In this document: in pieces, positions 3,579 through 55,112 of the stretch
Layout of the letters: the number at the start of each line of letters is the position of its first letter
How positions within the stretch are numbered: the stretch's first letter is position 1
Source of the DNA: Bacteroidota bacterium
GTDB taxonomy: Bacteria; Bacteroidota; Bacteroidia; JAHEXY01
Direction: 5' to 3'
Assembly (NCBI GenBank): GCA_023251875.1
Contig: JAHEXY010000004.1
Span: forward strand, 130,359 to 194,358
Length of the DNA: 64,000 nt
Translations under genes and position numbers: made by a program
The notes under the pieces: model-generated
Told to the model about the DNA's origin: nothing
Seen by the model: only the letters and a program-made list of their open reading frames with translations
The model's database searches: none

Positions 3579-4264
3579 AAAAGACTAATTACATATTAAA
3601 AAATCAATCTACCATTAATGTTTCATTTTGGGCTTCTAATTATATTCAAAACCAAGCACATACTGAAAAATTAAAAAATATTGCTGATACACTTGATGGC
3701 ATAATTGACGATCTTTCGAAATATGGATGGTATATTAATGCCAATTTTTCTATAAACTTTATTCTAGAGCTCGCTAATTATGTTAAACAAAAAAACGCAA
3801 AAGAATTAGAAAATGAAATAATCAAATATTATAAGCATAATATTGACGGAATAAGAAAAAATCTATTAATAAAATATAATGATAGACAAATTTTACTAGA
3901 AGAAGCCTTTAATGCTCATAAAAGAGAAATGTATTTTTCCTCAACCATATTATTCTTATCTCAAGCAGATGGGTTATGTGATGGGAATTTCTTCCTGTTA
4001 GCTAAAAACAAAAAAAAACTTAAGACTTTTCTTAACCAAAAACAAAGTCCAGATGTTGTAAATATTGTTCTTGGCAAAGAAAGCGCTATTGATTCATGGA
4101 CTGGTCATAAACAAAAATATTTTAGTGATCTAAATAGACATGATATTATGCATGGATACTGCTTTGATTTTGGCAATGAAGTTAACAGCTTTAAGGCATT
4201 ATCGTTATTATGTTTTATGTCAGATTTTATTGATAGCTATAATAAATTTGAAAAATATAAGTAG
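3575..4264 (+). CDS. Hypothetical protein, translationally coupled to the RM enzyme (ATGA stop/start overlap); no recognisable domain
   Basis: 229-aa ORF whose ATG overlaps the TGA of the upstream gene (GGGGAATGAAAAAG); no signal peptide or TM segment evident; no motif I can assign. Confidence 0.6.
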   Translation: MKKTNYILKNQSTINVSFWASNYIQNQAHTEKLKNIADTLDGIIDDLSKYGWYINANFSINFILELANYVKQKNAKELENEIIKYYKHNIDGIRKNLLIKYNDRQILLEEAFNAHKREMYFSSTILFLSQADGLCDGNFFLLAKNKKKLKTFLNQKQSPDVVNIVLGKESAIDSWTGHKQKYFSDLNRHDIMHGYCFDFGNEVNSFKALSLLCFMSDFIDSYNKFEKYK

Positions 4265-4267
4265 CTA

Positions 4268-4933
4268 TCATGGCTAAAGCCCTTTATACCCTACATTGTT
4301 TTTTTCTCCGCCATAAATGGCGGAGTTAGTTGAGCGAGAACGGTATAGTTAATGCAAATAAAGATAAATGCAGAATACCAACCCCAGCTTAAAAGCTGGG
4401 GGGCATAAGAATAAGCAAGAAGTAAAATGGGCTTTAGCCCAAAAAAATAAAATATTATGGCTTTTGTAAAAATATGGGTACACGCAGTTTGGGGCACAAA
4501 AAATAGATTTCCTTTTCTTGTTAATGGAGTTAAACAACAAGTAATTCAGCATATAAAAGAGAATGCCATAAAAAAGCAAATTTATATTGATTGTATTGAT
4601 GGCCATACAGAACATCTTCATGCATTAATAGCTCTTAATGCAGATAGAGATATTGCCAAAACAATGCAATTGATAAAAGGCGAATCTACACATTGGATAA
4701 ATCAACAAAAAATTACACGAAGTAAATTTGAATGGGCCGATGAATATTTTGCAGTTTCGGTAAGTGAATCAATGTTAGATAAAGTAAGAGAATATATCCA
4801 TGGACAAGAAGAACATCATAAAAAAACAACTTTTACCGAAGAGTATAATAATTTTATAGGCAAATATAATTTTCAAAATCATGGCTAAAGCCAATTCCAT
4901 TTTTCAGTCTATTTTAATCTCCGCCATAAATGG
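4268..4933 (+). mobile_element. REPtron-like unit: RAYT gene flanked by REP hairpins and ~55-bp direct repeats
   Basis: Left flank 4268-4325 and right flank 4878-4933 both contain ATCATGGCTAAAGCC...TCTCCGCCATAAATGG; palindromes CTCCGCCATAAATGGCGGAG (4306-4325), CCCCAGCTTAAAAGCTGGGG (4382-4401), GGGCTTTAGCCC (4429-4440) lie between the left flank and the RAYT gene. Confidence 0.65.
4457..4888 (+). CDS. REP-associated tyrosine transposase (RAYT; IS200/IS605-like Y1 HUH transposase)
   Basis: 143 aa; HUH motif HTEHLHALI; N-terminal HAVWGTKNR; C-terminal catalytic-Tyr region VREYIHGQEEHH; flanked by REP hairpins. Confidence 0.8.
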   Translation: MAFVKIWVHAVWGTKNRFPFLVNGVKQQVIQHIKENAIKKQIYIDCIDGHTEHLHALIALNADRDIAKTMQLIKGESTHWINQQKITRSKFEWADEYFAVSVSESMLDKVREYIHGQEEHHKKTTFTEEYNNFIGKYNFQNHG

Positions 4934-7109
4934 TAGGTTTATAAGTTTACTATGCATGCTTGGTATAAGCTTTTCTAGCTTCTCCCAAACCGATTCTACC
5001 TTTTTTCTCCCCAATCAACATCCCGAAATAATGCTTTCAGGATTTGGTTTTAATAATTCAGGCGGAAGTGATGTTTTTAATCATTGTGCCGGTATTATAA
5101 GCGATGGAACAAGATTATTTTTGTGCGACAGGTGGAATAATAGAGTATTGATTTGGAATACAATTCCTCAAACTAATCTTGAGCCCGATCTTGTACTTGG
5201 ACAAAAAGATTTTAATACAAACGATCCGGGATCTAAATTAGATCAATTTGATTGGCCTGGTGCTGTTTCTGTTTCAAGTGATGGTAAATTGCTTATTGCT
5301 GATACCTATAACAATCGGGTTTTAGTTTGGAATACTATTCCAACAACAAATGGGCAGGCTGCTGATTTTGCAATAACTGATAATATATCATGGCCCTGGG
5401 GGGTGTGGAGCAACGGAAAAAAACTAATTATTGTTAATACCCAGCAAACGCAATCAAATGCAATAATGGTATGGAATACTTTTCCTGCAAGCAGTTCTGT
5501 AAAATATGATTTCAAACTTACTGCCGGTGGAGATTTGGGAACACCTAGAACAATTACAACAAATGGTGATTTTTTAATGATAGGTGATCACAATTCAAAA
5601 AATGCGAATGGGCCTCAGGGAAATTATGTATGGACAACATTTCCGCAATCAGATGTTGTTTATGATTATTTTACTACTGACCCTTATGATAAAAATTATG
5701 CTTGGCTACAAGGAACTGTTACTTCAGATAGTATGCTAATTGCATTGGGCCGCCAACTGCATATTTGGAAAACACTTCCAAACACATCTTCTCAAAAACC
5801 GGATATTTCATTAAGCTATAATTTTAATGGGGGAGATGGTTCAGATGTGGCAGTAGCCGGAGGAAAAGTATTTGTCTCTTGCATGAATGACAATCGTGTT
5901 TTTGTTTTTAATAGTATCCCAACATCTTCTTCGGCCCAGCCCGATTTTGTATTGGGAAGTCCTGCCATTGACACAAACACACTTACAATAAATCATTTTA
6001 TTACCAATCCGGTTCCTGTTTCTGATGGTGAGCATTTATTTGTTTCTTCTGATTTTGATAAAACCTTAAGCATCTGGGAAAATTTACCGGATTCAAGTGC
6101 AACCCCTCCCGATACAATTATTAATCTTCAAGAAGCCCCTTGGGATAACGAACTCCATGGCGATACACTTGTTTTGGCTGGAAAAAAAACAATTTTTATT
6201 TGGAAATCACTTCCCTTAAACGGCCAGCAGCCCGATTTTACCCTTCAAGATCATATAGGATCCATTTATTTTAATGAAATTAGAGGTGTAGCTTTTGATG
6301 ATAGCTATTTTTACATTGCTGATAATAATACGGTATATGTATGGAGTGGCTTTCCAACTACCTCTTCTTATGCTGATCCTATGCTAACATTACATTTTGC
6401 AAGTGTTATGAAATTATGCAGTGATGAAGGTTATTTATCAATAACCGAAATGGAAGCAGCTCCTCCCAAAGCAGTGCTTTATAAAATTTCTAATTTTCCA
6501 AATGATACCAATCCTTATAAAACCATTGAAGGGCAGAATGGATATTATTTTAATTTACCTATGCACACCATTACTTCAAACGGGCATTTATTTTTAGCAA
6601 ACTCTATTTTTAATGTTGTGTATGCTTGGAAAGACATCAATGATGCCGGAGATTTTTCAAAAGTAATTGTATTGGGCAGCGATACAACAATAGAAACCAT
6701 TCCTTGCATTGGTGATAGTACATTATTTTGGCCTGCAAGTTTAAGTTTTGATGGCAAACACCTTTGGGTAGGAGAATTTAAATTTTCAGGAAGGATTTTA
6801 AGATACACCATTCCCTCTGAATTAACGAGCATTAAGAAAATAAATACAAAAACTAATTTAGTTTCAAATATTAAAATATATCCCAATCCTGTAAGTGATC
6901 AAATAAACATAAATTTTCCGTCTATAATAAATGAAAGTAAAGTTGAAATTTCTCTTTTCGATTACACGGGAAAATGCGTAAAAAAATATGAAACTGGTCT
7001 TTTTAAAACTTTCTCTATTGATGTGAATAGCTTTGCATCCGGACTATATCAATTAAGAATTTCAAATACAAATACTGTATTTAGCCAAAAAATCTTAATT
7101 ATTAGGTAA
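4881..7109 (+). CDS. Secreted NHL-repeat beta-propeller protein with T9SS type-A C-terminal sorting domain
   Basis: Repeated NNRVLxWNTIP-type units (DRWNNRVLIWNTIP, DTYNNRVLVWNTIP, MNDNRVFVFNSIP); C-terminus IYPNPVSDQININ...GLYQLRI typical of the Por secretion tail. First 25 codons are encoded by the right REP repeat, so the true start may be the ATG at 4956. Confidence 0.65.
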   Translation: MAKANSIFQSILISAINGRFISLLCMLGISFSSFSQTDSTFFLPNQHPEIMLSGFGFNNSGGSDVFNHCAGIISDGTRLFLCDRWNNRVLIWNTIPQTNLEPDLVLGQKDFNTNDPGSKLDQFDWPGAVSVSSDGKLLIADTYNNRVLVWNTIPTTNGQAADFAITDNISWPWGVWSNGKKLIIVNTQQTQSNAIMVWNTFPASSSVKYDFKLTAGGDLGTPRTITTNGDFLMIGDHNSKNANGPQGNYVWTTFPQSDVVYDYFTTDPYDKNYAWLQGTVTSDSMLIALGRQLHIWKTLPNTSSQKPDISLSYNFNGGDGSDVAVAGGKVFVSCMNDNRVFVFNSIPTSSSAQPDFVLGSPAIDTNTLTINHFITNPVPVSDGEHLFVSSDFDKTLSIWENLPDSSATPPDTIINLQEAPWDNELHGDTLVLAGKKTIFIWKSLPLNGQQPDFTLQDHIGSIYFNEIRGVAFDDSYFYIADNNTVYVWSGFPTTSSYADPMLTLHFASVMKLCSDEGYLSITEMEAAPPKAVLYKISNFPNDTNPYKTIEGQNGYYFNLPMHTITSNGHLFLANSIFNVVYAWKDINDAGDFSKVIVLGSDTTIETIPCIGDSTLFWPASLSFDGKHLWVGEFKFSGRILRYTIPSELTSIKKINTKTNLVSNIKIYPNPVSDQININFPSIINESKVEISLFDYTGKCVKKYETGLFKTFSIDVNSFASGLYQLRISNTNTVFSQKILIIR

Positions 7110-31242: not shown

Positions 31243-33321
31243 ATGAAAAAACTCATACTCCTTTTTATACTCATATCTACCATTACCAAAGCTCAAGATT
31301 ATAAATGGACCCAATCTTTTGGCGGTACAAATTCTGATTATAGCCGAGGTGTGGTTATTGATAAAGCAGGAAACATGTATATAGCAGGATCTTTTAAAGG
31401 TACTGTAGATTTTAACCCCGGCTCAGGAACCGATTCTCATACTTCAGGCACTTATGATGATATTTATATTGTAAAACTCGATGCCTCAGGAAATTTTATT
31501 TGGGCTAAAACATATGGCAGTGCCGATTACGATTACCCCAATGCTATTGCCATTGATGAATCTGCTAATCTTTATATTGCAGGAACCTTCACGGGAACAA
31601 CAGATCTAAATCCATCTTCATCCAGTACAGATGCGCATACTTCAAATGGTAGTTATGATGTTTTTATTGAAAAACTGGATAGTGCAGGAAAATTTAAATG
31701 GGGGAAATCTTTTGGTGGAACTGGCAGTGATTACGTACGTAGTATTGCATTGGATGCATCAGATAATGTATACGTAACCGGTTATTATGCAGATGAAGTA
31801 GATTTTGATCCGAGTTCAGGCACTGATAAAAATACATCAAAAGGAGGCGATGATGTTTATATTGAAAAACTGGATGCTTCCGGTAATTTTGTTTGGGTTA
31901 CTACTTTTGGCGGAAGCTCTACTGACAAAGGTTATGGCATTGCAACTGATGTTTCAGGTAATGTTTATGTAACAGGAAGTTTTACTGATACAGTAGATTT
32001 TAAACCTTTTTCTATAGTATCGTTTGAACATATTTCAAATGGAGGTACGGATATTTTTGTAGAAAAATTAAATGATGCAGGAAGTGCACAGTGGGTAAGA
32101 ACTTTTGGAAGTACTCAAACCGATTATGGTTTATCACTTGGTATTGATGCATCCAACAATATTTCAGTTACCGGATACTTTGAAGATGTGGCGGATTTTG
32201 ATCCTTCTTCATCAGGAACAGATTCTCATACCTCAAAAGGCGGATATGATGTTTTTGTTCAAAAACTAGATGCTTCCGGAAATTTTAAATGGGCGCAAAC
32301 CTATGGAGGCACGAGTGATGATTATCCTTCTTGCATTGCTACAGATTCTAAAAACGCTAATTATGTAATTGGTAATTTTAAAGGCACTGCCGATTTTGAT
32401 CCTTCCTCATCCGGTACAGATTCCCATACATCTAGCGGAAGCGCAGATATATTTATTCAAAAACTCGATAGTTTAGGAAATTTTCAATGGACCCATACTT
32501 TTGGTGGGAGCTCCGGTGATTATGGATATTATATTACTACAGATGCTTCAAACAATTTGTATTCCTTAGGATATTTCGAATACACCATCGATTTTGATCC
32601 CACATCCGGCACCGATTCCCATACTTCTAATAACGGATATTACGATGTATTTATTAGTAAATATGGTGAGGGTTGTAACAACTCTTATGGCAGTATTAAT
32701 GCAAGTGAATGTTATAGTTATGCTTCTCCAAGCGGTAATTACAATTGGACATCTTCCGGAACGTATACTGATACCATTGCCAATACAGGTGGGTGTGATA
32801 GCATTATTACAATTACTTTAACAATTGAAACGGTTGATACATCAGTAACTTTTTTAAACAATATCTTAGCTGCAAGTGCCAGTAGTGCCACTTTTCAATG
32901 GCTCGATTGCGATAATGGCTATACTTTTGTTACAGCACAAACCAGCCAAATTTTTATTCCTACCAGTTCAGGAAACTATGCTGTAATGGTTACACAAAAT
33001 GGTTGTACGGATACGAGTTCTTGTTATGCAATTACAGTAGTTGATACGGGATCAGGAAGCAGCATTCAAGAAAATAGTTTTGAAAAAAATATTACTATCT
33101 CTCCTAATCCAACAAAGGGAGCATTAAATATTTTGCTCGAAAAAAATTACAATACCATTGAATTAGAAATTCATAATTGCTTGGGTGAAAAAATAGAAAA
33201 ACAAATTTATAGCAATACCCAAACTATTAATCTTACTATTAATGCGCCACAAGGAATTTATTTCTTAATGCTTAAAAACGATCAAGAACAAAAAGCACTT
33301 ATAAAAGTACTTAAAGAATAA
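31243..33321 (+). CDS. Secreted SBBP beta-propeller-repeat protein with T9SS type-A C-terminal sorting domain
   Basis: At least eight repeats of the form SGxDxxxxIxxDxxGNxY..G.F.GTxDFxP.SG.D; C-terminus ISPNPTKGALNIL...GIYFLML. Confidence 0.75.
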   Translation: MKKLILLFILISTITKAQDYKWTQSFGGTNSDYSRGVVIDKAGNMYIAGSFKGTVDFNPGSGTDSHTSGTYDDIYIVKLDASGNFIWAKTYGSADYDYPNAIAIDESANLYIAGTFTGTTDLNPSSSSTDAHTSNGSYDVFIEKLDSAGKFKWGKSFGGTGSDYVRSIALDASDNVYVTGYYADEVDFDPSSGTDKNTSKGGDDVYIEKLDASGNFVWVTTFGGSSTDKGYGIATDVSGNVYVTGSFTDTVDFKPFSIVSFEHISNGGTDIFVEKLNDAGSAQWVRTFGSTQTDYGLSLGIDASNNISVTGYFEDVADFDPSSSGTDSHTSKGGYDVFVQKLDASGNFKWAQTYGGTSDDYPSCIATDSKNANYVIGNFKGTADFDPSSSGTDSHTSSGSADIFIQKLDSLGNFQWTHTFGGSSGDYGYYITTDASNNLYSLGYFEYTIDFDPTSGTDSHTSNNGYYDVFISKYGEGCNNSYGSINASECYSYASPSGNYNWTSSGTYTDTIANTGGCDSIITITLTIETVDTSVTFLNNILAASASSATFQWLDCDNGYTFVTAQTSQIFIPTSSGNYAVMVTQNGCTDTSSCYAITVVDTGSGSSIQENSFEKNITISPNPTKGALNILLEKNYNTIELEIHNCLGEKIEKQIYSNTQTINLTINAPQGIYFLMLKNDQEQKALIKVLKE

Positions 33322-50435: not shown

Positions 50436-50567
50436 GATACCTCTCCCCAACCCTCTCCAAAACTTGTCCCGATTTTTCGGGAGGAGAGGAAGATTATATA
50501 TTAGTTTATAAAACTAAACTTAAGATAATTTTATAATTCCACAATACAAAAAGATGTTTTGTTCAAA

Positions 50568-51287
50568 TTAATTCACATTTAAAGTGGTATTGCTTATACC
50601 TGCTTCAATAAAATTATTGAGTTCTTTAAGAAGATTAAGGGATGTATTCCCAATTTTTTTATTTGTAGATTTTGCCATTTTATTTAAAATCTTCTTCATA
50701 TCGTCTGCATGTTCATACAAAACAGCAAAATTTTCTATTTCATTCAATTCATTTAAGGCCTCTTGAAGTTTTAATATTAAAGCATCAAATTCATTAAAAT
50801 CATAAAAAGCCTCACAATATCTAATCAGCCATACCAATTTGGTTTCTTTAGGAGCATTAATATACAAACCTCTTAATGAATAAAGTGTTGAATTTTTAAG
50901 CTGCAGTGTTTTTTGATTCATTTCTGTTTTCAAGGCTGCGCTATGTTCTGCAAACTTTTGATCGAGTTCGTTATTTTTTTGGTTCAATATTTTTTCTGTT
51001 TTGCTCGACAAATTATTATAAACAGCATAACCCAGCCCTAGCATTAAAAAAAGCACTACAATAGAAAATAAAAACAAATTATTCGACATTATTTTTTTCT
51101 CAGCCAAACTTTGAATACTTATTGCATTCAATTCCTTATTTCTTTGACTTAGTTTGTTTACATCCAATTTTAATTGCTCAATTTGTTTGGCTTGGTTTTC
51201 TGTACGCAATGAATCATTAGTTTGAGAAAATAATAAAATACTTTTAAGACTAATAAATAATGTAATGATGAATAGTTTGGCGTTCAT
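50568..51287 (-). CDS. Hypothetical protein (signal/TM plus coiled coil)
   Basis: Two hydrophobic segments and a coiled-coil-like region; no assignable motif. Confidence 0.45.
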   Translation of the reverse strand: MNAKLFIITLFISLKSILLFSQTNDSLRTENQAKQIEQLKLDVNKLSQRNKELNAISIQSLAEKKIMSNNLFLFSIVVLFLMLGLGYAVYNNLSSKTEKILNQKNNELDQKFAEHSAALKTEMNQKTLQLKNSTLYSLRGLYINAPKETKLVWLIRYCEAFYDFNEFDALILKLQEALNELNEIENFAVLYEHADDMKKILNKMAKSTNKKIGNTSLNLLKELNNFIEAGISNTTLNVN

Positions 51288-51354
51288 TTGATTGCATTTT
51301 AAAGTATTGGGGGAATAATAATTTTTGCAAAGGTATTTTTAATGCATGGGCTTA

Positions 51355-51573
51355 TCAACAGAAAATATTTCTTTTTATTAACAAAATAATGATGTAAGAT
51401 TTGATAGGCTCAACAATAATTTTATTGTTTACATAATCAGAAACTTGATATTTTTTTGAATCAGGTGCCTCTAGAAAATAAGCTCGTTCTTTAAAAATTA
51501 TCTCAGCAAAAAATTTGATACGATAATTGTCATATTCAAATTCATGACTCTCCGAATAATTTGCGCCTTTCAT
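51355..51573 (-). CDS. Hypothetical small protein
   Basis: 72-aa ORF; no motif. Confidence 0.3.
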   Translation of the reverse strand: MKGANYSESHEFEYDNYRIKFFAEIIFKERAYFLEAPDSKKYQVSDYVNNKIIVEPIKSYIIILLIKRNIFC

Positions 51574-51642
51574 ATTATTGATTAAGAAATATATTCATCA
51601 GTGCTAATCTTAAAAATCCGCATTATCCGAGTTTCAATATAT

Positions 51643-51720
51643 TTAAATCGTCTCTGGCAACGTATATTTTCTTCCTTTATTTTGCTCTTTTAAATATTGC
51701 ATAAGGGAAGCAAAATATCT
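51643..51720 (-). pseudogene. Displaced duplicate of the 3' end of the M2 peptidase gene (encodes RYFASLMQYLKEQNKGRKYTLPETI-stop)
   Basis: Own translation of the minus strand: this fragment encodes the same 25 C-terminal residues (one P/S change) and stop as the intact gene at 52332-52406, with differences mostly at synonymous positions. Confidence 0.7.
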
Positions 51721-51721
51721 T

Positions 51722-52099
51722 CTATGCAACCTTTAATTTAAATTTTGTATAAATTTCATCCGCTATTAAACCATGCAAAGAAATATCTGCTTGCGGTATT
51801 TCTTTCCACAAGATGCCTGTACCCATATTTTCATAATTATTCAGTTGCTCCATATTTGCATTTGCTAGACCAAGTATATCTGTAATATTTTTTTCAATTA
51901 TTGTTCCATTATTTAAAACAAACAGAATTCTATTTACATTTTTTTGAATCACTAAATGTGTAATTTCAAGTTTATTTGATTCAATTGCATCATCAATGGG
52001 ATCTATATCTTTAGAATAAAATTGAACCGTTTCATTTTCATTTTTAGTTTCAAGATTTTTCAAAAAATCTTCAGTTTCTTTATTTATTAAAGGTTTCAT
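51722..52099 (-). CDS. DUF2442-like protein (partner of DUF4160)
   Basis: 125 aa; C-terminal W...ADISLHGL segment resembling DUF2442; overlaps the upstream DUF4160 ORF by 20 bp. Confidence 0.55.
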   Translation of the reverse strand: MKPLINKETEDFLKNLETKNENETVQFYSKDIDPIDDAIESNKLEITHLVIQKNVNRILFVLNNGTIIEKNITDILGLANANMEQLNNYENMGTGILWKEIPQADISLHGLIADEIYTKFKLKVA

Positions 52100-52316
52100 T
52101 CCATTTGTTTATTAAAAGTTCATAATTTAAAATCACTATTTCTACTATTTGTTTAAGTTCTCTTGGTTTAAAATTACTGGCTTTTATAATTTTAATATCT
52201 GGCACTAAAATAATTTTAGCTTTACCACTAGCCTTTGCCACATGAATATGAATAGGTTCATGTTCATTCATAAAAAAATAAAATCTATATCCATTTATTT
52301 CAAATATTGTTGGCAT
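52080..52316 (-). CDS. DUF4160-family small protein
   Basis: 78 aa; MPTIFEINGYRFYFFMNEHEPIHIHV matches the DUF4160 signature (MP.I....G.RF.FY.NDH.P.H.HV). Confidence 0.7.
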   Translation of the reverse strand: MPTIFEINGYRFYFFMNEHEPIHIHVAKASGKAKIILVPDIKIIKASNFKPRELKQIVEIVILNYELLINKWNETFNK

Positions 52317-52331
52317 ATATATATAACAAAT

Positions 52332-54239
52332 TTAAATAGTTTCCGGCAAGGTATACTTTCTTCCTTTATTCTGCTCTTTTAAATATTGCATAAGCGGTGC
52401 AAAATAATCCATAATGGCTTTAGCACTCATTTCAGAACCTAATTCATCTTTTAAAACCAATCTCCAATCTTTAGAAGCTCCTGTACTCATTACTTCTTTT
52501 AAAAAGTTTCCAATTTCTTTGTTGCCGTAATAATTGGTTGAATGCGGATCTTGATGTAAAATATCTTTTGCGATGTGCTCATGAAATTGAAAAAGCAACA
52601 CATTAGCAATAGCATAATCATAATACTGTGCAGGATCATCATTAATATGTGTTTTAGAAGCTGCATCACAAAATTCTTCACCTCTTGTTGATGGAGGAAC
52701 AATACCTTGGTATTTTAATGCTAATTCCCACCATTTTTTGTTATACTGATCTACAGGTAAATTTTGTGCATATAAATTGTATTCGAACTCCGTCATAACA
52801 CCTGCAGCCCATGGAAGAACAACAACATAACTCAAAGCTTCTTTTAAAAGTTTTTGTGTATCATCTGTTTTTGTATTGGGATCTATTAATCCAAAATTGG
52901 CTAAGAAAGGTTTTTGCATAGAGGCTAATCCCATCATGGTTCCGAAAGCTTCATGAAAACCACGATTAGCGCCTTCTCTTAAAATAATAGGTACTTGTGG
53001 TGTTGAATAAGAACGGTAGTAATAAATATGTCCTAATTCATGTAGTGCAGTTTCCCACCAACGAGAATTAGCTTCAATGCTCATTAATGAACGTATATCA
53101 TCATCATGATTAATATGCCAAGCCGAAGCATGGTTATTTTTTTTGTAGCCTGCATCAAGCGGAGCGGGATACAAACTTGATTTTTCCCAGAAAGATTTTG
53201 GTAATGAATCAAAACCTAGGCTTACATAAAAACCTTCTGATTGTTTAATAATCCACTCCGGAGTTTTTTCTTTTAAAGCAGAATCAACGTTTAATCCCTT
53301 TACATCAACCAAATCATCCCATGATTGCCCCCAGCGATTAGGTAGCCAATGCGCAGGAAGCATATCCGGTACAGGTTGCTTGTATTTATTTGCCAATTCA
53401 TATCGGGCCCAGGTATGCAATTCACGAAAAAGCGGCCAAATGTCTTTTACCATATCATGGCAAACGTTCATCATTTCATCAGTAGTCATATTATAATCAG
53501 AAACCTGATACGAGAAAAAATCTTTATAACCCAATGCTTGCACCGACTGGTTTCTCAATTGTTGCAAATTTGCAAGCCCCGGTTTTAAACCTACGCCCAC
53601 TTCTTTACTGGCTTCCCAAGCTTTTAATCTTTCATTTAAATTATTAGATGCACCAAGAATAGAATCAATTTGGTTTACACTTACAGATTTGCCATCAATT
53701 TTAAAATCGTAACCAAATAGTTTTTCTGTTTGCTCATTATTGGCTTTAATAAGAGATTTTATTACGTCTTTTATGGTTTCAGGTCCACCGGCTGCAGAAT
53801 ACAAAACAGCATTGAGTTGACGAACCTCTATATCACTCAACTCATCTTTATGTTTTAAATATTCCGTTGCTTTATTAATATTATAGGCACTTCCACTAAA
53901 ATGATTATAAGCTTCACTTGCTACTTGAGCATTGTGTTTGGCAACAGTATCTCCTTCAACAATATGTGTATTCAATGCCCAATCTGCTTCTGATGATGCA
54001 TTGAGCAATTGTTTCATGGTATCATTATAAGCAACTAGATATTGATCTACTTCTTCTTTAATACTTTTTTGTTGGGTAGATGTTCCGCAAGCTGCAAATA
54101 AACAAATAGAGCTTAGAATTAAATAGTTTTTAAAATGCATACTATAAATTTTATGGTTAGAAATAAGAATGCAAAAGTAGGGAAAAGAGATGAAGCTTGA
54201 AAGGAGTATGAGAATATGAAAATCCGTTTTGCTAATCAA
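52332..54239 (-). CDS. M2-family (angiotensin-converting-enzyme-like) peptidyl-dipeptidase with signal peptide
   Basis: HELGHIYYY...LREGANRGFHEAFGTMMGL parallels the ACE zinc-binding HEMGHIQYY...LRRGANPGFHEAIGDVLAL region. Confidence 0.8.
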   Translation of the reverse strand: MISKTDFHILILLSSFISFPYFCILISNHKIYSMHFKNYLILSSICLFAACGTSTQQKSIKEEVDQYLVAYNDTMKQLLNASSEADWALNTHIVEGDTVAKHNAQVASEAYNHFSGSAYNINKATEYLKHKDELSDIEVRQLNAVLYSAAGGPETIKDVIKSLIKANNEQTEKLFGYDFKIDGKSVSVNQIDSILGASNNLNERLKAWEASKEVGVGLKPGLANLQQLRNQSVQALGYKDFFSYQVSDYNMTTDEMMNVCHDMVKDIWPLFRELHTWARYELANKYKQPVPDMLPAHWLPNRWGQSWDDLVDVKGLNVDSALKEKTPEWIIKQSEGFYVSLGFDSLPKSFWEKSSLYPAPLDAGYKKNNHASAWHINHDDDIRSLMSIEANSRWWETALHELGHIYYYRSYSTPQVPIILREGANRGFHEAFGTMMGLASMQKPFLANFGLIDPNTKTDDTQKLLKEALSYVVVLPWAAGVMTEFEYNLYAQNLPVDQYNKKWWELALKYQGIVPPSTRGEEFCDAASKTHINDDPAQYYDYAIANVLLFQFHEHIAKDILHQDPHSTNYYGNKEIGNFLKEVMSTGASKDWRLVLKDELGSEMSAKAIMDYFAPLMQYLKEQNKGRKYTLPETI

Positions 54240-54291
54240 ACCTCTACGAGCAATGTCATTAAGTTAAGGAGAAAATTAAGCCAACGCGCAT

Positions 54292-54565
54292 GCTTCGACT
54301 TCGCTCAGCACGACCTTTGCTCGGCTGTCATGCTGAGCGAACTATGTCGTTTTTTAAGCCTGAAAGGCTTTAATATCAATAGCCTCCGATTTTATCGGAG
54401 GTAAGAGTTTGATTGTTGATTATTGAACCCCTACGGGGTTCAACTGATTTGTTTGCATTTCCCCCTGATTTCATCAGAGGTTATTCAAATTTAATCCCTT
54501 CGGGATTGGGTGAACAACAAAGCATTACTCCTTAAAAAACGACATTGGCTGAGCGAAGTCGAAGC
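54292..54565. repeat. 274-bp hairpin-rich element bounded by perfect 18-bp inverted repeats (MITE-like or structured RNA)
   Basis: GCTTCGACTTCGCTCAGC (54292-54309) and its exact reverse complement (54548-54565); nested GTCGTTTTTT / AAAAAACGAC; internal stem-loops AAGCCTGAAAGGCTT, CCTCCGATTTTATCGGAGG, GAACCCCTACGGGGTTC, ATCCCTTCGGGAT. Confidence 0.65.
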
Positions 54566-54942
54566 GTCCAAAAAAAATCCTTTTGGTACCTTAAATAATG
54601 ACATTACTCTACGAGGTATGAATACGAACGGCCTTGCGTTTCTACAATACTATATGCCCTACAGGCAATTAATTAAAAATACGACATAGGCGTTAAAGTT
54701 TTGTAGAAGGCTATAGGTTGGGCATTAACACTTCCCGTAGCAATTTCTGTAGCGGCTGTTGTAATAAAACTTTACCATCATAAAGATATTATTGCAGATT
54801 TTAAAATATTTGCCATTCCAATCTTAATTGGAATTTGTTTAGCCGTACCATTAATGTATGTTACCTACAGAAACTTATATGAAAAAAACATGGATGAAGT
54901 AAAATCTATGTTAGAAGATTTAAAAGAATAATATTACAAAAT

Positions 54943-55103
54943 GGCTTCGGGAGCCTCAGCCATCGATGTAATTGGCAACTGAGGCTCTCGAAGTCACAAA
55001 AAACAAATCCTTCAAAGTTTAAAAAACCTTGAAGGATTTTTATAGAACTTGGCTTCGAGAACCTCAGCCAACATATACAAGGGTGCCTGAGGTTCCCGAA
55101 GGC
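54943..55103. repeat. Two paralogous ~52-nt hairpins separated by a perfect terminator-like hairpin
   Basis: Unit 1 54943-54994 and unit 2 55051-55103 (GGCTTCG(G/A)GA(G/A)CCTCAGCC ... CTGAGG(C/T)TC(T/C)CGAAG), with a G-C to A-T compensatory change in the stem; middle hairpin AAATCCTTCAAAGTTTAAAAAACCTTGAAGGATTT (55005-55039). Confidence 0.6.
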
Positions 55104-55112
55104 ACAACTAGA

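Follow-up and report, generated by a model that had tools for sequence, protein, structure and literature searches.

A DUF4160-DUF2442 operon of the toxin-antitoxin type lies between two copies of a peptidase gene tail in a Bacteroidota genome

Introduction

Chromosomal toxin-antitoxin (TA) operons are patchily distributed, usually without an adjacent mobility gene, and the route by which they arrived is rarely visible. The window analyzed here, a 64,000-nt stretch of a Bacteroidota genome (GenBank assembly GCA_023251875.1, contig JAHEXY010000004.1, positions 130,359 to 194,358), raises the question of this route at a single locus. Two small overlapping genes of the DUF4160 and DUF2442 families lie directly behind a gene for an M2 family metallopeptidase, and immediately beyond them the 3′ end of the peptidase gene occurs a second time. 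How did the pair come to lie between two copies of the same gene tail? A sequence-only reading of the window had proposed a site-specific integration in which the incoming element supplied a replacement 3′ end. The junctions at this locus are still legible, in the form of a replacement tail, a stranded tail with coding-type divergence and an insert of a single operon. We give about an even chance to the horizontal acquisition of a "gene tail plus TA operon" unit by recombination anchored in the peptidase gene, with displacement of one copy of the tail.

Results

The peptidase gene tail is present twice, around an operon-sized insert

The last 24 codons and the stop codon of the peptidase gene are found at 52332-52406 and again at 51643-51717, both on the minus strand. 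A repeat search of the window returned 51636-51717 and 52325-52406 as a direct repeat of 82 nt with 87% identity and a spacing of 689, which was the sole repeat of its kind in the whole 64 kb, and blastn-short within the local flanks matched the two copies with E = 9e-20. The peptidase open reading frame (ORF) ends ...YFAPLMQYLKEQNKGRKYTLPETI-TAA at 52332-52406, and the displaced copy, on the minus strand at 51643-51720, reads R-YFASLMQYLKEQNKGRKYTLPETI-TAA with its stop at 51643-51645. The sequence-only reading had described a copy of the last 25 codons; 24 codons and the stop are indeed shared, but codon 25 from the end is Asp in one copy and Arg in the other, which limits the match. The duplicated tail around two small genes is otherwise borne out by the repeat search, by alignment and by independent assemblies. 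The structure is 99.9-100% identical in three independent metagenome assemblies of the same organism (L023, L024 and L026; the peptidase gene is also called as 602 aa in L023 and L026), and a fourth assembly (L025) agrees at 99.9-100% for the upstream part of the structure. Because independent assemblies from several sequencing runs agree, an assembly artefact is very unlikely.

Only two overlapping genes, DUF4160 and then DUF2442, lie between the tail copies. The ATG of the first gene is 15 nt past the peptidase stop codon, and the displaced copy starts 4 nt past the TAG stop of the second; because these margins are so small, the insert consists of the operon alone. The displaced copy is part of no long ORF, and its frame is not that of the DUF2442 gene.

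Coding-type divergence between the two tail copies

In the 24 shared codons there are nine nucleotide differences, eight of them at third positions, confirming that the copies differ mainly at synonymous sites. Seven codons are synonymous. In the remaining pair, CCG/TCC, Pro is replaced by Ser in the displaced copy; this residue is conserved in both nearest relatives of the peptidase. The differences amount to approximately 0.58 per synonymous site and 0.017 per non-synonymous site. We simulated an in-place duplication in which the resident copy drifted at synonymous sites only and the displaced copy drifted neutrally. About five amino-acid changes were expected under this model and the displaced copy gained a stop codon in 32-44% of the runs; one amino-acid change or fewer was seen in 0.02-0.3% of the runs (P = 0.0002-0.003) and eight or more third-position differences in 0.2-0.5% (P = 0.002-0.005). 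Because drift in place rarely yields the observed pattern, the tails appear to have evolved as coding sequence in separate lineages. The simplest reading would be that they are functional ends from two diverged lineages, now side by side, and the incoming replacement 3′ end of the sequence-only reading, which fits a divergence under coding constraint, is likely. The differences are scattered across the whole repeat, with a 23-nt identical block in its middle. Neither copy stands out as the native one, the two nearest relatives being equally close to both (61 against 60 of 75 nt for one relative, 57 against 57 for the other).

These data bear on an alternative in which an illegitimate or unknown mechanism placed the cassette just behind the peptidase stop codon and duplicated approximately 80 nt of target, the copies then diverging in situ. 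The repeat ends at the stop codon or a few bases past it, both in the window and at a related Spirosoma locus (L036, described below), as such an insertion would leave it. Drift in place is nevertheless rejected for the window (P of 0.005 or less), and all three differences between the L036 copies are synonymous. We consider this explanation quite unlikely for the window. Another alternative is that the "gene tail plus TA" unit was duplicated locally in tandem and that the second TA copy was then lost, no tail having been imported horizontally. Such duplications are frequent in bacteria, but this course requires a further, precise deletion, the displaced tail is followed by no remnant of another TA pair, and the synonymous-biased divergence speaks against an origin in place. 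We regard it as very improbable.

The inserted pair belongs to the DhiT/DhiA family

The assignment of the two genes to DUF4160 and DUF2442 in the sequence-only reading was upheld by profile search, which matched them to PF13711 and PF10387 (Table 1). The DUF2442 match is weak yet above threshold (E 7.7e-7, 29.7 bits, gathering cutoff 23.9), and the DUF2442 partners at related loci score higher than the protein in the window. The two genes are on the same strand and overlap by 20 nt, with the DUF4160 gene first. The same domain pair makes up dhiTA of Dickeya dadantii, an experimentally shown, toxin-first, autoregulated type II TA system (PMC8198452), in agreement with the earlier description of the pair as toxin-antitoxin-like. 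A comparative study reported that DUF2442 proteins typically follow DUF4160 proteins, and that no confident structural homologue exists for the fold (PMC12065111). The NCBIfam model nearest to the DUF4160 protein is toxin_DhiT (NF048015), with an E value of 8e-5 and 23.2 bits against a cutoff of 100, i.e. below the equivalog level. The protein is a member of the same superfamily as Dickeya DhiT and no orthologue of it. An AlphaFold2 model of the protein (mean pLDDT 88.5) consists of five strands followed by two helices, and neither an HUH nor a recombinase fold was seen in this predicted structure. PADLOC returned no match. The insert is probably a minimal type II TA operon of the DhiT/DhiA (DUF4160/DUF2442) family with a putative toxin, and, as part of the best explanation of the locus, the cassette would behave as a selfish, addictive accessory unit.

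The operon probably has its own promoter, which would be built in part from the gene tail. Bacteroidota promoters have the −7 consensus TAnnTTTG. The sequence TAAATTTG, which consists of the peptidase stop codon and the next five bases and ends 10 nt before the toxin ATG, fits this consensus, and related cassettes have similar TAnnTTT[GA] boxes ahead of the toxin ATG. Two cassette subfamilies carry perfectly conserved operator-like palindromes, GGTCTAAAAAATTAGACC and GTAACAAATTTGTTAC, directly upstream of a TATATTTG −7 box. Counted from the toxin ATG, the palindromes lie at about −70 to −25 in L071-L076 and L082, and at about −50 to −25 in L077-L098. They are likely sites of TA autoregulation. 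No equivalent operator-like palindrome was evident in the cassette of the window.

The cassette is absent from a related locus

Among more than 6000 peptidase homologues, two only were above 70% identity (78% and 77%). The contig of the 78% relative stops 37 nt after the stop codon. The 77% relative (L028) has the same SET-domain gene upstream of the peptidase gene, and neither the TA pair nor the duplicated tail. The pair or a second tail was found in none of 22 more distant peptidase loci, and a scan of a genome collection with the peptidase yielded relatives of at most 67% identity only, none with the pair or a duplicated tail. Look-ups of the exact proteins (toxin, antitoxin and the 72-aa ORF that follows the displaced copy) returned the same organism with the same arrangement only.

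The closest relatives of the TA pair, with toxins 53-58% identical, lie directly behind thiH-like, galM-like and S9 peptidase genes, and relatives of the pair were found on 45 plasmids. The G+C content of the cassette is 0.22-0.28, versus 0.31-0.39 for the peptidase gene. These comparisons support an accessory and apparently mobile TA pair: the pair is lacking in the 77% relative, stands beside unrelated genes elsewhere and is present on plasmids, as expected of the mobile cargo proposed before. In L028, a three-gene HipBA-like TA module (HTH_3, Couple_hipA and HipA_C; 3800-5598) directly follows the orthologous M2 peptidase gene. TA modules thus seem to land repeatedly in the 3′ flank of this peptidase gene.

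No recombinase or attachment structure was found at the locus

The site-specific integration of the sequence-only reading would involve an element whose attachment site mimics the peptidase 3′ end, with a tyrosine or serine recombinase acting in trans or since lost, giving a structure like a cis-mobilizable element (CIME) flanked by attL and attR. A classic signature of integrases acting at gene 3′ ends is a replacement tail with mainly synonymous differences, as at icd (e14 and phage 21) and fda (ICESt3 and CIMEs), and the mostly synonymous differences between the tails of the window resemble it. The spread of the differences and the 23-nt identical block are as reciprocal attL/attR chimeras would show, and the insert is flanked, as integrative elements are, by target-derived direct repeats (82 nt, 87%).

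No integrase is present in the 0.7-kb insert, as the sequence-only reading had stated; the insert holds the two TA genes only. Nor was an integrase found among the genes identified within approximately 10 kb, which include those for a SET-domain protein, a TolC/RND/MFP efflux system, two ORFs without a match, ddl, a 3-hydroxyacyl-CoA dehydrogenase and similar. A non-exhaustive scan took in ten more ORFs with the length of an integrase (320-440 aa) from across the window and found no recombinase domain; these ORFs were housekeeping genes or had no family match. No att-like or attC-like structure was detected at the insert, and the gap of 4 nt between the antitoxin stop and the displaced tail leaves no space for an attC site. 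The region after the antitoxin gene, with the displaced copy, showed no significant RNA fold (z = −1.27) and no terminator-like site, and Rfam gave no match in the window at gathering thresholds. The features of a transposon, insertion sequence or MITE (miniature inverted-repeat transposable element), namely a transposase or terminal inverted repeats with a short target-site duplication of fixed length, were not seen, the repeats that flank cassettes of this family being 21-107 nt and variable in length.

A 19-nt inverted repeat with 84% complementarity (51736-51754 and 52319-52337) lies near the cassette ends and was considered as a pair of terminal inverted repeats. It is centred on the A+T-rich palindrome ATTTAAAT, which also closes both peptidase-tail copies. 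As many as 53 such pairs occur in 1.2 kb, and this one is off the repeat boundaries; it was judged to be a chance match in A+T-rich DNA.

A larger island that had since decayed is unlikely to have left exactly one operon with margins of 4 and 15 nt. We consider site-specific integration at this locus unlikely; the attachment specificity that it entails is examined below across the related cassettes.

The footprint recurs in related cassettes

The toxin was aligned with its four closest relatives, and a scan of metagenome contigs with this alignment yielded 80 loci. Nearly all of them have a partner ORF after the toxin gene in the same order, and the partners tested were DUF2442 proteins. Related cassettes with 80-94% nucleotide identity occur in unrelated contexts. 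Their similarity begins about 45-75 nt ahead of the toxin ATG and ends 0-10 nt beyond the antitoxin stop, and the upstream part of this shared unit contains an operator-like palindrome and a TAnnTTTG box. The confinement of the similarity to the operon across unrelated contexts indicates that the moving unit is the minimal operon.

To score the footprint, we compared the first 70 nt after the antitoxin stop with the 400 nt upstream of the toxin gene at a threshold score of at least 17. A direct repeat anchored at the antitoxin stop was present in 11/60 non-redundant loci, versus 3/279 ordinary ORFs of the same contigs (Fisher P = 6e-7), and the score never exceeded 14 in 360 trials with mismatched pairs. 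A cruder test with random placement (E < 1e-4) gave 9/50 DUF4160-DUF2442 loci versus 11/590 controls. The repeats of individual loci are listed in Table 1. Three of the positive loci (L056, L067 and L068) are arrays in which an inter-cassette repeat occurs three or four times, and resemble integrons.

The cassettes of these arrays (L056 2252-4966, L067 3716-5652 and L068 3691-6491, on probable Bacteroidota contigs) are approximately 0.7-1.4 kb long and are separated by repeats of 70-160 nt. The array repeat includes a hairpin and, in L067, also a TAnnTTTG promoter-like box. In the control scans, L110 showed long direct repeats of 38-385 nt with 93-95% identity around other small ORFs (~790-2050 and 5500-6900), which suggests another repeated-cassette array near its DUF4160-DUF2442 pair.

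The targets and lengths of the repeats bear on the alternatives. A single conserved attachment specificity was not seen across the related cassettes, whose repeats derive from the tail of an S9 peptidase gene, terminators, the tail of an engB gene and sequence downstream of tRNA-Pro; so many unrelated targets, including a convergent gene tail, and repeats of 21-107 nt are unlike the product of one attachment site. Two related cassettes lie just downstream of tRNA-Pro genes, a location that speaks for site-specific integration; however, the repeat begins after the tRNA and excludes its 3′ end. Host-mediated recombination anchored in homology would fit variable-length repeats at many targets at least as well as site-specific integration.

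The repeats of L055, L064, L073 and L089 abut the cassette boundaries, as set by the comparison of related cassettes, and are 93-100% identical, and an in-place duplication is the most natural reading of the near-identical abutting repeats in L064, L089 and L055. To our knowledge, no prokaryotic insertion mechanism yields variable-length duplications of 20-110 nt, which weighs against a duplication in place. The repeat of L072 carries the last 11 nt of the antitoxin gene, as the remnant of a duplicated unit would and hence in favor of tandem duplication; it may trace a tandem or sequential replacement of cassettes.

Empty and occupied states coexist in Spirosoma

The L036 locus allows the same target gene to be compared within one genus. 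The S9 peptidase gene of L036 is 84% identical to that of L116, which has no TA pair behind it, and 79% identical to that of Spirosoma radiotolerans (L117). In L117, the S9 gene lies directly before the genes that also stand downstream in L036, and the TA pair, the displaced tail and a 175-aa ORF are missing. In L037, the S9 gene is followed by the TA pair at the same spacing as in L036, and the displaced copy is absent, as in a donor-type arrangement. These four loci indicate that the empty state, the occupied state without a footprint and the occupied state with a footprint coexist for one target gene in the genus. At two variable codons, the L117 allele is that of the resident copy in L036 and the L116 allele is that of the displaced copy. 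No recent transfer tract was detectable in the Spirosoma case. The patchy distribution at the same target is what homology-anchored spread would predict.

Features of the window and of related loci

The coordinates of the features are collected in Table 1. The cassette, the displaced tail and the two ORFs that follow form a continuous stretch of low G+C content (0.22-0.30; 50500-52300) between the peptidase gene and ddl, each of approximately 0.31-0.39, and the accessory region may therefore exceed the cassette. The 72-aa ORF was considered as a degraded copy of the toxin gene and was rejected, as the two are unrelated (hhalign probability 0.4%).

On the other side of the peptidase gene, approximately 870 nt of non-coding, hairpin-rich DNA with a G+C content up to 0.42 (54240-55112) separate it from the SET-domain gene, whereas the spacing of the two genes in L028, the 77% orthologous locus, is 35 nt. 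Short perfect stem-loops are numerous in the non-coding region, which also holds an 18-nt inverted pair (cgcttcgacttcgctcagc / gctgagcgaagtcgaagc) approximately 230 nt apart and resembles a cluster of repetitive extragenic palindromes (REP) or MITEs. Rfam returned nothing meaningful for it, just sub-threshold matches to eukaryotic miRNA models. A 692-aa ORF at 31243-33321 encodes a repeat-domain protein, in which a 198-nt (66-aa) repeat occurs six times in tandem with 67-76% identity at the DNA level.

Table 1. Features of the peptidase locus in the window and direct repeats at related loci
Feature	Position	Strand	Basis or remark
DUF4160 gene, 78 aa, putative DhiT-type toxin	52080..52316	-	Pfam PF13711, E 3.2e-19, 69.3 bits, profile positions 1-65 of 65
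DUF2442 gene, 125 aa, putative DhiA-type antitoxin	51722..52099	-	Pfam PF10387, residues 55-115
TAAATTTG, putative −7 box of the TA-operon promoter	52327..52334	-	Read from sequence
M2 family (ACE-like) metallopeptidase gene, 602 aa, lipoprotein-like signal peptide; host gene	52332..54140	-	Pfam Peptidase_M2, E 1.5e-102
Resident repeat copy: last 24 codons, TAA and ~7 nt, still in the functional peptidase gene	52325..52406	-	Repeat search, alignment
Displaced copy of the peptidase 3′ end: 24 codons, TAA and ~7 nt	51636..51717	-	Repeat search, alignment
72-aa ORF, first gene past the displaced copy	51355..51573	-	No family match
239-aa ORF, after the 72-aa ORF and before ddl	50568-51287		No family match
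L036 repeat, 30 nt: last 9 codons and stop of the S9 peptidase gene, 4 nt after the antitoxin stop			3 differences, all synonymous
L045 repeat, 33 nt of gene tail			
L055 repeat, 107 nt: likely gene tail and terminator			
L064 repeat, 41-50 nt: terminator hairpin just past a tRNA-Pro gene			
L072 repeat, 57 nt, including the tail of a convergent engB-like GTPase gene	3859-3915 and 4662-4718		Displaced copy on the promoter side
L089 repeat, 21-24 nt			
L073 repeat, ~50 nt with gaps			

Discussion

The analysis established the repeat, the family assignment of the pair and the coding-type divergence of the tails; it also showed that the cassette is accessory and that its footprint recurs among relatives. 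From these we infer the following course, to which, as stated at the outset, we assign about an even chance. The cassette would have come from a diverged relative, where it already stood directly after an M2 peptidase gene, and recombination would have been anchored through homology in that gene. In one possible route, one-sided homologous recombination would have been completed at its far side through an illegitimate join that falls 24 codons upstream of the stop codon in the other lineage, i.e. by homology-facilitated illegitimate recombination. In another, a small circle carrying the gene tail would have been integrated by a Campbell-type single crossover. Because either route leaves both tails in place, the two copies would carry the divergence between donor and recipient. 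One 24-codon copy would now complete the gene, and the other, shifted 689 nt downstream, would be non-functional and decaying, as the change of Pro to Ser suggests. A dedicated integrase would not be required. The flanking repeats would permit scarless loss of the cassette or its re-circularization; the predicted circle junction would run from the antitoxin stop through AAG and the repeat into TTGTTATATATATATG, and at the empty site or excision junction the peptidase gene would be joined to the sequence after the displaced copy, ...GACGATTTAAATATATTGAAACTCGG.

Several observations weigh against this course. No empty site was found for the organism itself, its nearest peptidase relatives being 77-78% identical, and the donor-type arrangement, an M2 peptidase gene followed by the TA pair without a displaced copy, was not found. 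The suggestion that the pair might occur at the 3′ ends of M2 peptidase genes elsewhere came to nothing, as 0/87 related TA loci adjoin such a gene. A recombination breakpoint is not visible in the M2 peptidase gene, nor in the S9 peptidase gene of L036, and the statistical case in the window rests on 24 codons. In L064, L089 and L055, near-identical intergenic or terminator repeats that abut the cassette look like duplications made upon insertion, and the extension of the L072 repeat into the antitoxin gene is predicted by no simple insertion model. Finally, homology-anchored spread leaves the first arrival of the cassette at each new target unexplained. More than one insertion route may operate across the family.

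We also entertain, with low confidence, a wider hypothesis in which DUF4160-DUF2442 operons are integrase-less mobile cassettes. The unit, from the operator and −7 box to the antitoxin stop, would land at gene ends, terminators and tRNA flanks, generating or carrying target repeats of approximately 20-110 nt that keep the target gene intact and that would later serve as portable homology arms for excision and spread. If the footprint proves specific to this TA family, or to TA cassettes generally, it would point to an undescribed insertion route, perhaps involving the cassette's own proteins. Among related cassettes of unrelated bacteria, about one in six carries this kind of footprint, versus approximately 1% of control genes; this recurrence offers a testable handle on the integrase-independent spread of addiction or defence cassettes, by one-sided homologous recombination or by a new insertion route. 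Short orphan 3′ ends of genes could mark small cassettes that were recently acquired.

Among known systems, the closest in gene content is DhiT/DhiA of Dickeya dadantii 3937 (PMC8198452), which likewise pairs a DUF4160 toxin with a DUF2442 antitoxin in a toxin-first, overlapping bicistronic operon. It too is chromosomal and patchily distributed, and its relatives are common on small plasmids. In contrast to dhiTA, the pair in the window resides in a low-G+C Bacteroidota host and is very distant (23 bits against the DhiT cutoff of 100), and its antitoxin has an N-terminal extension of approximately 50 aa with no detectable helix-turn-helix domain.

TA cassettes of integrons are similar in that they contain little beyond their ORFs and have boundaries tight to the stop codon. 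Unlike in these, the repeat in the window is coding sequence of the target, there is no room for attC, and the cassette appears to carry its own promoter. The elements e14 and phage 21 in icd, and ICESt3 and CIMEs at fda, share with the locus the direct repeats of the target 3′ end around the insert, the intact gene and the mostly synonymous differences. Elements of the icd and fda type measure at least 10 kb or derive by deletion from elements of that size, and need a cognate integrase and one attachment specificity. The insert in the window, in contrast, is a 0.6-kb operon with no recombinase nearby, and its relatives have left footprints at many unrelated targets.

The closest likeness in architecture is the C-terminal displacement at Rhs, contact-dependent inhibition (CDI) and type VI secretion system (T6SS) effector-immunity loci, for which homology-facilitated illegitimate recombination was proposed as the route (PMC5361080 and references cited there). 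In both cases a new 3′ end arrives together with one or more companion genes downstream, the old end is orphaned further downstream, the upstream part is a conserved anchor and no integrase is involved. The coding-type divergence expected of homology-anchored displacement is found in the window (8/9 differences at third positions) and in L036 (3/3 synonymous). At the Rhs, CDI and T6SS loci, however, the new 3′ end is a different toxin domain and the companion is its immunity gene, whereas in the window the tail encodes the same 24 residues and is functionally neutral, the cargo is an autonomous, unrelated TA operon and the host gene is an ordinary peptidase gene. C-terminal displacement, so far described for polymorphic toxin loci, would thereby be extended to ordinary housekeeping genes. 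No description of DhiTA cassettes flanked by target repeats was found in the literature searched, which, given its incomplete coverage, is weak evidence of novelty. The locus combines two known kinds, a DhiTA-family TA operon and the displacement of a gene tail; what appears to be new, being absent from that literature, is an operon-sized insert without an integrase and the recurrence of long target repeats across the family.

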